This document shows positions 19,744-22,926 of a stretch of DNA of 64,000 nt, piece by piece. Numbering within the stretch: position 1 is the first letter of the stretch; each line of letters starts with the position of its first letter. The stretch is from Candidatus Nanosyncoccus sp. (lineage in GTDB: Bacteria > Patescibacteriota > Saccharimonadia > Saccharimonadales > Saccharimonadaceae), in contig JAZRPR010000003.1 in NCBI GenBank assembly GCA_045649305.1, positions 830 through 64,829 on the forward strand, read 5' to 3'. The notes beneath the pieces were generated by a model. It saw nothing but the letters and a program-made list of their open reading frames with translations. It searched no databases and was not told the DNA's origin. The position numbers and the translations under genes were made by a program.

Positions 19744-20463
19744 ATGGATAAAACCCCATATCAGGAGTTCGCGAAAGCCAAATTAGGCTTCGAGTTTAAG
19801 GATATTGATCTACTCGTCACCGCGCTGACCCACCGCAGCTACGTCAACGAGCACAAAGCCAGCGTGCACGATCATAATGAGCGCCTAGAGTTTCTCGGCG
19901 ACGCCATTCTAGAGATGGTTTCTTCGGATTTTTTGTATCGCAATTACAATGAGCCCGAAGGTATCATGACCTCTTGGCGTGCCGCTTTGGTGCGCACCGA
20001 ATCCATCGGCGCCGCCGGCAAAGAGCTCGGCTACGAGCCACTCGTGCGCCTCTCCAAAGGGGAAAAGCACGGCTCCGAGCGCGCTCACGACGTGATTCTC
20101 GCAGACTGTTTTGAAGCCGTGATTGGCGCAATTTACCTAGACCAAGGTTACGAAACCGCCAAAGACTTCATCTACAAGCATATTTTAAATAAGATCGACG
20201 AAATTCTCGAGGACGAATCCTGGCGCGATCCAAAATCATACTTCCAAGAGCTCGCCCAAAAGAACGCCGGCGTCACCCCTGTTTATCGCACGCTCAAAGA
20301 AGAGGGCCCAGACCACGACAAAAGCTTTACTGTGGGCGTTTACGTTGGCGAAGAATTGAAGGGTGTAGGTGTAGGCCATTCTAAACAAGAGGCACAAACC
20401 GCCGCTGCTAAAGAGGGTGTCAAGAATTACAAAGCTGCTGAAAAAGTCGCCAAAAACGCTTAA
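19744..20463 (+). CDS. rnc: Ribonuclease III
   Basis: ALTHRSY, NERLEFLGDAIL signature, DPKSYFQE dsRBD. Confidence 0.97.
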   Translation: MDKTPYQEFAKAKLGFEFKDIDLLVTALTHRSYVNEHKASVHDHNERLEFLGDAILEMVSSDFLYRNYNEPEGIMTSWRAALVRTESIGAAGKELGYEPLVRLSKGEKHGSERAHDVILADCFEAVIGAIYLDQGYETAKDFIYKHILNKIDEILEDESWRDPKSYFQELAQKNAGVTPVYRTLKEEGPDHDKSFTVGVYVGEELKGVGVGHSKQEAQTAAAKEGVKNYKAAEKVAKNA

Positions 20464-20470
20464 AAATATC

Positions 20471-20501
20471 AAAATGACCCCAGTTGTCTGTGGGTCATTT
20501 T
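20471..20501 (+). terminator. Intrinsic terminator after rnc
   Basis: AAAATGACCC / GGGTCATTTT stem followed by T-run. Confidence 0.7.
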
Positions 20502-20506
20502 TGTGC

Positions 20507-20535
20507 TTGCCAAAACCCCTAAAAAGTATTATAAT
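20507..20535 (+). promoter_or_regulatory. Sigma-70-type promoter not followed by a plausible CDS
   Basis: TTGCCA (20507-12), 17 bp, TATAAT (20530-35). Confidence 0.7.
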
Positions 20536-20541
20536 GAGCCC

Positions 20542-20857
20542 AGCGTTAGGGAGTGACGTGGTTTTGATTTCGGGCCCTCCCATTTCAAAATTTTCACCTC
20601 ACCCTCTAACGTTACCAGTACCTTACACAACTTAATCAATGCTCTGCTAGCGCGACATCAATGCCAAGTCAACACATAGAATTCTTCAAACCGCCGGACC
20701 TGCTCTTCGGAGCAACCGCTTCTTGGAATCGCTGCACTGATTAAGTTTCGCCCATGGGTTGCTATTCCGGCAGAGAATAACAACCACTACCTTACCCCCC
20801 AGCCCCCTTTATGGGCTGGGGGCTCCTAAGTTTTAAGGGGTAGTGACCCCTCTTTTT
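20542..20857 (+). ncRNA. Candidate ~315-nt structured non-coding RNA, family not recognised
   Basis: Follows a consensus promoter, has five or more stems including C(UUCG)G, and ends in AGGGG-tagtga-CCCCT + T-run. Strand not fully certain. Confidence 0.5.
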
Positions 20858-20858
20858 G

Positions 20859-20887
20859 TTGACTAAACATAAGAAATATGATATAAT
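20859..20887 (+). promoter_or_regulatory. Sigma-70-type promoter of orphan ORF
   Basis: TTGACT-17 bp-TGaTATAAT. Confidence 0.7.
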
Positions 20888-20921: not shown

Positions 20922-21455
20922 GTGGCATATCGTGAAAACCCATTCGGGTTTGAAGAGCGCGACGATCCGCGCACGTGGGGCCAAGCTGTTGTCCTTAGTG
21001 ATGACGAAGTGATCTGGGATATCCCAGACCTCAGTTCAAAATCCGAGATACAGCAGCTGGCTGGCGAGGAGCTAAAGCAACATTATGCGTGGCTACTCGA
21101 CATGATGTGCAATGCGGCAACTATCTGCTACATTCAGCGGGCACTTGATTACCGCTACTGCAGCTGGGCACAGGAGTCTCTTCAAAGGCGCTACCTTGCC
21201 AAAAGTTCTCGTGAGCGAGTGGACGAAATTACACTCGCGTACAAAGAGATCGAGGGCCGCAGAGAGAAGCTAGCCATTGGCGCAGCTAAATTCACTAACA
21301 AGTACAAACTGTACTTAGGCGAAGGAAGGCTAACCGCCAAATGGCTCATCAACCACAGTAAAGAGGAACATCTCAAGTTTTTCCGCGAAATGCAGAAAAA
21401 AGGAGAATGGTTTCTCTTTAGCGAGTATGATTTGCTCGCCGAATTCTACGAATAG
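20922..21455 (+). CDS. Hypothetical cytoplasmic protein (177 aa)
   Basis: GTG start 8 nt after GGAGG; own promoter and downstream hairpin; no motif recognised. Confidence 0.7.
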   Translation: MAYRENPFGFEERDDPRTWGQAVVLSDDEVIWDIPDLSSKSEIQQLAGEELKQHYAWLLDMMCNAATICYIQRALDYRYCSWAQESLQRRYLAKSSRERVDEITLAYKEIEGRREKLAIGAAKFTNKYKLYLGEGRLTAKWLINHSKEEHLKFFREMQKKGEWFLFSEYDLLAEFYE

Positions 21456-22006: not shown

Positions 22007-22037
22007 AAAATAGCCCCCTTAAAAGGGGCTATTTTTT
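22007..22037. terminator. Bidirectional-type terminator after rpsP
   Basis: AAAATAGCCCC / GGGGCTATTTT. Confidence 0.75.
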
Positions 22038-22086
22038 GTGCTATACTGTGCGTGTTGGCGATCAAAACCAAAAGGGGGTGATTAAA

Positions 22087-22926
22087 ATGAAGAAAACGCC
22101 AAAGCATCATTACAAGGATTCGCACGTGCATACAAAAATCAGCCATGATGGCGAAGCATCGTTTATCGAATATCTCGAGTACGCCAAGGAGCGCAACGTC
22201 GATGAGGTTACCTTTACGGAGCATTACGACATCTACGACGGCGTCGACTCTAAACTCACGACTCTGAATATTCCGCGCTACTGGCAAGCGTATCTCACTG
22301 AGACTATGCGCTCCAACATCCGGACGAATTTTGGTATCGAAATCGGCCTGCGCCCAGAGTGCGCGCAAAAGATTAAACGAATGACTGCCGAATATCGGTT
22401 CGACTTTATCATCGGCTCCTCGCATATTACGAGAGGTAAGGATATGTCAATGGACCCGAGTTTCTTTAGCGGCCTCACCATGAAGGAGGCTTACGACGAG
22501 TATTTTAAAGAGATCCGCGAAAATATCGATATCTTTGACGATTTCGATGTTTACGGTCATCTCGACTACGTCGTTCGCTACGGTGGCTATGGCTGTGAGC
22601 GCATTAACTACGAAGATTTTGCTAAGATTTTGGACGATATCCTGACGGCATTAATCAAGAAAGGCAAAGGTCTTGAAATTAATACCTCTGGCTATCGCTA
22701 TGGACTGAGCTATGCTCATCCAAACGCTGAAATTTTGCAGCGTTACCACGATCTGGGTGGCAAAATCATCACACTCGGTTCCGATGCGCACGAGAGCAAG
22801 TATCTGGCGAGTCATTTCGACGACGCCTATGAACTGCTCGAAAAAATCGGCTTTAAGGAGATTGCTGTATTCCATCGTCGCGATCCTGTATTCTACGAAA
22901 TCGCAACATTAAAAAATCACGCTTGA
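22087..22926 (+). CDS. PHP-family phosphatase (HisJ/HisK histidinol-phosphatase-like)
   Basis: DSHVHT..SHDG, FTEHYD, IIGSSH, YGHLDY, LEINTSG, TLGSDAH. Start ATG 22087 after GGGGGTG. Confidence 0.85.
   Translation: MKKTPKHHYKDSHVHTKISHDGEASFIEYLEYAKERNVDEVTFTEHYDIYDGVDSKLTTLNIPRYWQAYLTETMRSNIRTNFGIEIGLRPECAQKIKRMTAEYRFDFIIGSSHITRGKDMSMDPSFFSGLTMKEAYDEYFKEIRENIDIFDDFDVYGHLDYVVRYGGYGCERINYEDFAKILDDILTALIKKGKGLEINTSGYRYGLSYAHPNAEILQRYHDLGGKIITLGSDAHESKYLASHFDDAYELLEKIGFKEIAVFHRRDPVFYEIATLKNHA

Follow-up and report, generated by a model that had tools for sequence, protein, structure and literature searches.

What is encoded by the roughly 315 nucleotides (nt) that lie between rnc and an orphan open reading frame (ORF) in Candidatus Nanosyncoccus? 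The 64,000-nt stretch of contig JAZRPR010000003.1 analyzed here, called the window below, carries around this region nusB, a NUDIX gene, rnc, the region itself, the orphan ORF, rpsP, a PHP-domain gene and a gene for a KH protein, in that order. An earlier note on the window had taken the region for a candidate novel structured RNA, about 315 nt long and equipped with a promoter and a terminator of its own. The comparison described below supported this: the RNA belongs to no Rfam family, and eight diverged homologues show strong covariation. A genuine structured RNA gene read from the sense strand is, in our judgment, very probable. On balance, we favor reading it as a stand-alone, lineage-specific, trans-acting structured small RNA (sRNA) gene at 20541-20857 on the + strand. 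We consider it quite possible, though we would not call it probable, that the RNA works by base pairing in trans, and our nomination of a conserved 76-aa gene as its true target is tentative.

The source assembly, the window's own genome, comprises 720 kb in 42 contigs and is 94% complete; the relatives are other Candidatus Nanosyncoccus (Saccharibacteria G3 group) from the ruminant gut. The DNA of the RNA region gave no BLAST match against 60 relatives. When 80 rnc loci from species genomes were searched with nhmmer, a recognizable counterpart was found only in the closest (L005, rnc 95% identical), which had a promoter of its own and formed the same helices from different sequence. Homologues were obtained through rnc: protein variants at 93-98% identity were collected and their contigs examined, giving eight sequence types, A to H, with the window as type A. 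In all eight, which come from independent assemblies, a TTGCAA/TTGCCA-17-TATAAT promoter is found at the equivalent position after rnc. The earlier note had seen no ORF led by a Shine-Dalgarno (SD) sequence behind this promoter, and no credible ORF, whether SD-led or conserved among the types, was found in the region. The RNA is about 315 nt long in type A and 234-295 nt across types when measured to the tail after P4, the last of its helices. A terminator follows P4 in six types, namely A and, with different sequence, C, D, E, G, and H.

The fold of the region is better than expected by chance on the + strand (z = -3.9, with none of 100 shuffles as good; z = -4.5 in a uniform re-run). P1 is a long stem in every type but C, where it is a hairpin of 9 bp. 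Its base is CG(A/U)UUG paired with a CAAUCG-like strand, and its apex, GGG-CCCU-CCC, bears the anti-SD-like motif CCCUCCC, which is present in five types. The arms of P2, a 14-nt inverted repeat, are 93% complementary in the window. The loop of P4 is CU-rich in every type, reading CCUUUAU in the window, CCUCCUU in two types, and CCCUCUUU or similar in others. Each type folded alone gave P1 to P4 with pairing probabilities of 0.78-1.0, the sole exception being P3 of type H, for which an alternative hairpin competes. Pairing of the 5' end with the tail beyond P4, as a closing helix, was also considered and was set aside as inconsistent across types. The structural elements listed in the earlier note are all in the sequence, none displaced by more than one base. 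Two of its finer observations proved to be peculiar to type A: the imperfect direct repeat ACCAGTACCTTAC / ACCACTACCTTAC (20614-20626 and 20783-20795) is present in the window but is not conserved in the seven other types, and the proposed alternative pairing of the 5' arm of the terminator with CACTACCTT (GGUAGUG with CACUACC) is absent from those seven and was abandoned.

Covariation was examined in a core alignment of nine rows, built block by block by hand and padded with N, which MAFFT returned unchanged; plain MAFFT and RNAalifold misaligned the helices, and the cmsearch alignment had 454 columns. Standard pairs are formed by 94.6% of the cells, against 80.2 +/- 1.1 with shuffled partners. 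Both sides have changed in 27 of the 51 pairs, compared to 13.6 +/- 2.2 after shuffling, and 27 was reached in none of 500 shuffles. Sliding the partners by one to three columns lowered pairing to 28-48% of cells. The covariation that the earlier note had suggested seeking downstream of rnc in relatives is thus present, and it is spread over P1 (6 of 9 pairs changed on both sides), P2 (12 of 15, with 96.6% of cells paired), and P3 (8 of 12). P4 is 98.9% paired, with a change from C-G to A-U at one pair and 12 U.G or G.U cells over the nine rows, 11 when one row is kept per type. Independent of the hand-fitted alignment are the single-sequence folds and an arm-swap test, in which cognate arms formed more stable duplexes than non-cognate arms in P1 (-12.5 versus -6.1 kcal/mol), P2 (-14.3 versus -4.2), and P3 (-15.0 versus -7.7). 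At its four-fold degenerate sites, rnc shows an identity of only 39-76% between types; neutral positions are therefore near saturation, and yet the helices and sequence blocks of the RNA, itself 52-77% identical, have been kept.

The strand called for attention, because the earlier note had pointed to A-C mismatches that become G-U on the minus strand. Eight such cells do exist in the helices, but they are outnumbered by 24 G.U cells on the + strand, and in P4 alone the count is 11 to 0. In a uniform run, the sense fold had a lower z-score (-3.2 to -6.5) than the antisense fold in 8/8 types, type C for example giving -3.75 and -0.35, respectively. Promoters and terminators are oriented in the + direction as well. 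The G.U to A.C ratio, the fold z-scores, the promoters, and the terminators together favor the + strand as the functional strand.

The alignment contains one further element that is conserved by sequence. CUGCC, which borders the P2 interior on its 5' side (CUGCU in the window), and GGCAG in the P3 loop are mutually complementary, invariant amid variable surroundings, and 100% paired across types (helix 3). The duplex energy is -6.8 to -8.7 kcal/mol, and the partners are mostly unpaired in the nested ensemble, CUGCU/CUGCC with an unpaired probability of 0.57-0.95. Judged by this complementarity, CUGCC could pair with GGCAG as a pseudoknot.

The region appears to be a transcription unit of its own. 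A separate promoter precedes the orphan ORF, so the RNA is not the leader of that gene, and a TATAAT-type promoter likewise lies between the RNA terminator and rpsP in type E. Types A, C, D, and F have the orphan ORF downstream of the RNA, and type G has an unrelated short ORF there. In type E and in some loci of type C, rpsP follows immediately, and in types B and H the next gene encodes a large surface protein (LRR/DUF285). Because the downstream gene varies in this way, the RNA is not the leader of any one gene, and the variation together with the intervening terminator and promoter ruled out a cis-regulatory leader such as a riboswitch, a T-box, or an r-protein leader. The only constant neighbor is rnc, which lies directly upstream on the same strand in 8/8 types. 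A terminator between rnc and the RNA is found only in type A, the window's type; in the seven others, where the promoter of the RNA begins about 10-20 nt past the rnc stop codon, there is none, and rnc transcripts therefore probably run into the RNA. By this arrangement, the RNA would also form the 3' untranslated region (UTR) of rnc in most lineages.

We then compared the region with known RNAs. With Rfam 15 at gathering thresholds, only tRNAs were found in the window, and the seven homologous loci gave no Rfam family at gathering score, in agreement with the novelty claimed in the earlier note. When E-values up to 10 were allowed, the region gave only terminator-like resemblances far below threshold, and its reported lack of signatures of transfer-messenger RNA (tmRNA), RNase P RNA, signal recognition particle (SRP) RNA, and 6S RNA was borne out. 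The resemblances to STnc240, LhrC, anti-hemB, and the PyrD leader are hairpins of this kind; the match to LhrC (RF00616), at 19.2 bits against a gathering score of 110 (E = 3.7), spans P4 and the terminator only, and membership in that family was rejected. A type III hammerhead (RF00008) was found neither in the window nor in the seven homologous loci. RNase P RNA (RF00010/RF00011) has no match in the region, and the genome's copy is located elsewhere (C6:25314-25642, 227.6 bits). ARAGORN found no tmRNA genome-wide, the region included, which also has no Rfam match to RF00023 and no conserved ORF. SRP RNA (RF00169 / RF01854) was rejected, as the full Rfam search gave no match in the region and the RNA occurs in only 4/369 species of the genus; 6S RNA (RF00013) was rejected since no match was obtained and the fold consists of four separate helices rather than a rod. 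Two further classes were considered. A type III toxin-antitoxin RNA (ToxI-like) would be expected to have tandem direct repeats of about 34-36 nt and an endoribonuclease toxin gene behind them. The RNA region has no tandem repeat, and the ORF after it, which three RNA types lack, matches nothing in PADLOC or Pfam. A retron msr-msd was excluded as well, the ORFs around the RNA in the window and at the homologous loci being rnc, the orphan ORF, rpsP, and surface proteins, with no reverse transcriptase domain.

Two covariance models were used to follow the RNA beyond these loci. The model made from the single sequence (R1) placed it in 3/369 genomes of the genus, and the model made from the eight types (R2) in 4/369 species genomes: G000, the own genome (type A), G156 (type B), G165 (type C), and G182 (type E). 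R2 found no RNA at the other 80 rnc loci, and among 401 genomes from 255 genera of the order the own genome was the sole match, leaving 0/254 other genera. A 93% rnc variant, L090, also lacks the RNA. Matches of G178 and G378 to R2 and of G299 to R1 were discounted as chance, consisting of coding region plus terminator or of short fragments. No match was found by blastn against 50,697 phage records, and when metagenome contigs were scanned with the loose pattern TACCN{0,1}TTAYCYCCN{0,2}GCCCCC, among the matches listed 0/80 loci and 0/19 viral matches scored with R2. The RNA is, as far as its sequence distribution indicates, young or fast-diverging and restricted to one sub-clade of Candidatus Nanosyncoccus.

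A possible mode of action is offered by the single-stranded linker between P3 and P4. In the window it reads CUACCUUAC, in most types ACUUACCUUAU, and it is similar to the 3' tail of the organism's own 16S ribosomal RNA (rRNA). That tail, encoded on the minus strand of C20, is GGGUUACCUCCUUUCU rather than the usual GGAUCACCUCCUU, and the extended anti-SD of the organism is therefore UUACCUCC. The own genome has two copies of GTAAGGTAG, the reverse complement of the linker: one in the RNA gene itself and one at the SD of the 76-aa gene. This conserved gene, which has no Pfam or NCBIfam family, is present in 184/369 genomes of the genus. In 4/4 RNA-bearing genomes, the site upstream of the gene is complementary to the genome's own linker, with matched changes in three lineages (Table 1). 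The cognate duplexes of linker and site have energies of -13.7 to -23.0 kcal/mol, and the same sites pair only weakly with the 16S tail, at -5.9 to -10.5 kcal/mol. Some 20 RNA-less genomes have instead a GGAGG-type SD or a very short leader at the 76-aa ortholog; in the four genomes that carry the RNA, this ordinary site has given way to GUAAGGUA(A)G, a poor partner for the 16S tail. The -10 box of the 76-aa gene in the own genome is also spanned by an inverted repeat, TACCTTAC-N11-GTAAGGTA.

Table 1. Positions of the RNA gene, its predicted structural elements, flanking signals, and candidate pairing sites (window coordinates unless stated otherwise).
Feature	Position	Strand	Remarks
rnc	19744-20463		
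rnc intrinsic terminator	20475..20503	+	hairpin and T-run, A-run ahead; inverted repeat 20471-20501, 100% complementary
Sigma-70-type promoter of RNA gene, TTGCCA-17-TATAAT	20507..20535	+	11/12 consensus matches
RNA gene	20541..20857	+	start inferred 6-8 nt past the -10 box; end within terminator T-run
P1, long imperfect hairpin	20542..20613	+	arms 20542-20556 / 20599-20613; pairing probability 0.82-1.0
P2 5' arm, AACUUAAUCAAUGC	20629..20642	+	long-range helix closing the central domain
CUGCU (CUGCC in seven other types)	20644..20648	+	directly 3' of P2 5' arm; candidate pseudoknot 5' half
UUCG-capped hairpin	20701..20714	+	
P2 3' arm, GCACUGAUUAAGUU	20734..20747	+	
P3 hairpin, GGUUG-C-UAUUCC / GAGAAUA-A-CAACC	20757..20785	+	
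GGCAG in P3 loop	20769..20773	+	invariant in 8/8 types; candidate pseudoknot 3' half
Single-stranded linker P3-P4, CUACCUUAC	20787..20795	+	UACC(U/A)UUA in all types; unpaired probability 0.43-0.98
P4, C-rich/G-rich 10-bp hairpin	20796..20822	+	perfect arms 20796-20805 / 20813-20822
RNA intrinsic terminator, AGGGGU-AGUG-ACCCCU then U-run	20836..20857	+	
Promoter of downstream orphan ORF, TTGACT-17-TATAAT (with TG)	20859..20887	+	
Orphan ORF	20922..21455	+	GTG start 20922, or ATG 20901; outside the RNA; missing in RNA types B, E, H
76-aa gene, conserved	G000:C14:23187-23414 (outside the window)		protein begins MGYLEDMLVRNGVIYRAPDG; matching site 6 nt upstream of start, leader ~20 nt
Type A (own genome) linker and mRNA site			CUACCUUAC with GUAAGGUAG; 9 bp, one nucleotide shorter on both partners
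Type B (G156) linker and mRNA site			AAUUACCAUUACC with GGUAAAGGUAAUU; 12 bp and one A.A; C-G to A-U relative to type C
Types C (G165) and E (G182) linker and mRNA site			ACUUACCUUAU with GUAAGGUAAGU; 11 bp including one G.U
Type F linker			AUUUACCAUUACC

In the reading that we favor, the fold would display CU-rich, anti-SD-like single strands, mainly the linker UACC(U/A)UUA and also the P4 loop and the P1 apex, a layout like that of the CU-rich sRNAs that target SD sequences. The RNA would pair in trans with the ribosome-binding region of target mRNAs. The 76-aa gene would be the first candidate target, and pairing there would occlude its SD and most likely lower translation. If this is true, the 76-aa gene in the RNA clade exchanged an ordinary GGAGG for a site whose match to the RNA is better than its match to the ribosome. 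The larger claim is that no sRNA-mRNA regulatory pair was recognized earlier in Saccharibacteria or the wider candidate phyla radiation, and that in this pair the seed of a pseudoknotted RNA, about 300 nt long and encoded behind rnc, mimics the 16S tail and has co-evolved with the ribosome-binding site of the 76-aa gene. This we put forward as somewhat unlikely.

Several observations weigh against this reading. The transcript is a predicted one, and types B and F have no obvious terminator. The hand-fitted, N-padded alignment, from which the variable P1 apex and P2 interior were left out, leans toward structure; P1, with its CCCUCCC apex, is largely deleted in type C; and CUGCC and GGCAG are invariant, so that the pseudoknot pairing is without covariation. 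A fold of about 250-300 nt with four helices and a pseudoknot exceeds what a base-pairing sRNA needs, which favors a protein-binding role. As to the target, the four genomes linking it with the RNA are one clade, and the co-occurrence thus amounts to one event plus two or three compensatory changes. The 9-mer has two or three further sites each in G165 and G182, and the own genome has five other loci with at least 9 nt of complementarity, mostly inside genes. C-rich/G-rich pairing also yields sizeable energies for non-cognate partners, for example with the type B site. Because the evidence comes from one clade and such other sites exist, the pairing of the linker with the 76-aa gene is only suggestive. 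The 76-aa gene as a unique target by exact complementarity was rejected, since the genome-wide ranking does not single it out.

The main rival is that the RNA is a folded scaffold binding a protein or a small ligand, as in OLE and raiA, and not an mRNA, with the linker and CUGCC/GGCAG serving as tertiary or protein contacts. We regard this as unlikely, though several observations favor it: the conserved fold is an elaborate one that includes a candidate pseudoknot; what has been conserved is mostly structure, together with short internal motifs; and the size of 234-315 nt is suitable. A linker that mimics the 16S 3' tail could attract a tail-binding factor, and the locus lies among genes of rRNA processing and 30S assembly (rnc, rpsP, the KH protein). 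However, no partner protein is linked to the RNA, given that rnc is the sole constant neighbor and the gene downstream may be the orphan ORF, rpsP, or a surface protein; a distribution over 4/369 species is unusually narrow for a core ribonucleoprotein; and the matched changes in linker and 76-aa leader would go unexplained.

A lesser rival, which we consider improbable, places the function in cis, with the RNA as the 3' UTR of rnc. RNase III would cut P1 in its own message and thereby set the stability of the rnc mRNA, and the downstream RNA would be a by-product of this autoregulation. Escherichia coli RNase III autoregulates by cleaving a hairpin in its own leader. The position after rnc on the same strand in 8/8 types agrees with this proposal, as do the absence of a terminator between rnc and the RNA in seven types and the long imperfect duplex of P1 in seven types. 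Nonetheless, a strong dedicated promoter, needless if the element were purely a 3' UTR, is kept in 8/8 types, rnc has a complete terminator upstream of the RNA in type A, P1 is only 9 bp in type C, and P2-P4 and the pseudoknot would be purposeless.

Still less probable is that there is no RNA function at all and that the region is a hairpin-rich remnant of a cassette in a recombination-prone slot, its palindromes arising by chance or acting in DNA, with motifs such as TACCTTAC being protein-binding DNA sites. The slot between rnc and rpsP is indeed variable across the genus, with gaps from 29 nt to 2.6 kb that hold different ORFs and other promoter-terminator units. RNA types B (L005) and F (L106) are 77% identical in the RNA and only 38.5% identical at rnc four-fold sites, whereas types A and F, close in rnc (76% at four-fold sites), have different RNA types. 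The disagreement of the RNA and rnc phylogenies suggests exchange by recombination at the 3' boundary of rnc. The inverted repeat noted above for the own genome, which spans the -10 box of that gene, could moreover be an operator of the 76-aa gene. Against an origin by chance or an action in DNA, the long-range helix P2, whose arms are 45-100 nt apart, covaries at 12/15 pairs; G.U is tolerated three times as often as A.C, a strand-specific bias and therefore one that operates on RNA; promoter and terminator have persisted although neutral divergence is close to saturation; and the sense-strand fold z-scores are consistently low.

Two last alternatives have a negligible probability. A functional transcript from the minus strand would turn the eight A.C cells into G.U and would suit the window's own sequence slightly better by one measure (z -4.3 versus -3.9 on the + strand), but it would also turn the 24 G.U cells of the + strand, 11 of them in P4 alone, into A.C mismatches, in disagreement with the more negative sense z-scores in 8/8 types and with a conserved promoter and terminators that face the + direction. 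A very divergent copy of a universal RNA missed by standard models would account for the fact that SRP RNA (RF00169), 6S RNA (RF00013), and tmRNA (ARAGORN) were not detected in the 94%-complete own genome, which could reflect assembly gaps or divergent housekeeping RNAs, yet the region matches none of these nor RNase P RNA at E-values up to 10, has no tRNA-like domain, SRP helix-8 motif, or 6S rod, and, decisively, is confined to 4/369 species of the genus and 0/254 other genera, while a universal RNA is needed by all.

Several neighboring genes and units were noted in passing. In most Nanosyncoccus genomes, the slot between rnc and rpsP holds an ORF of about 130-220 aa. The orphan ORF of the window belongs to a fast-evolving family filling this slot; its members are 22-33% identical among RNA types A, C, D, and F and share an N-terminal F-x-(I/F)-EE-x-DDPRT motif and a C-terminal LT-x-WL...H..KR block, and no Pfam or PADLOC match was found for the window's ORF. 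The rnc variant L090 carries after rnc a different promoter-to-terminator non-coding unit (2752-2955, about 190 nt, z = -8.6) that contains a stretch like the 5' arm of P3, GGCGGCUAUCAUUGAUGAUG, and locus L004 (2538-3149) has two promoter-to-terminator units after rnc, of about 200 and 300 nt. The slot after rnc seems to collect small transcription units. The PHP-domain gene (22036-22926), between rpsP and the gene for the KH protein, is found at the type A and type D loci but is missing there from every one of the 80 species-genome loci compared; in these, rpsP, if detected, usually adjoins the KH gene. A type D contig (L089:153-533) encodes a 126-aa ORF with a CdiA_C toxin-domain match between a giant DUF285/Flg_new surface protein and nusB, just upstream of the locus.

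Hardly any regulators are known in Saccharibacteria, ultrasmall epibionts whose genomes measure about 0.7 Mb, and a literature search found no description of a small regulatory RNA in this group. An RNA gene supported by covariation and provided with a specific, testable mRNA partner would be a first handle on post-transcriptional control in Saccharibacteria. It would show as well how quickly such RNAs originate and diversify, since there are eight types in a clade in which any two RNase III proteins share at least 94% identity. The narrow distribution limits the general importance of the RNA.

We conclude that the RNA represents a new family of stand-alone structured bacterial sRNAs, a kind that is already known. 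Like the CU-rich SD-targeting sRNAs (LhrC of Listeria, RsaE/RNAIII of Staphylococcus, and RoxS of Bacillus), it is a stand-alone gene with its own promoter and terminator, has C/U-rich motifs in hairpin loops and a single-stranded stretch, and is predicted, here from its sequence, to pair with the AG-rich ribosome-binding site of mRNAs. It differs from them in its length, which is two to three times greater, in its long-range helix and candidate pseudoknot, and in a seed that imitates the unusual 16S tail of its own organism (UUACCU). Its place immediately after rnc on the same strand, and a terminator that is predicted to serve rnc too in 7/8 types, recall the type I 3'-UTR-derived sRNAs of enterobacteria (DapZ, MicL), but its promoter lies after the stop codon rather than inside the gene, type A has a separate rnc terminator, and there is no Hfq-type context. 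As an orphan structured RNA in the manner of the raiA motif RNA and OLE, it is restricted to a lineage, belongs to no Rfam family, and has a promoter-to-terminator, multi-helix organization supported by covariation. It is smaller than OLE, ROOL, and GOLLD, is distributed far more narrowly, within one sub-clade of one genus, and, unlike the orphan RNAs of the raiA/OLE type, has a concrete candidate mRNA partner.

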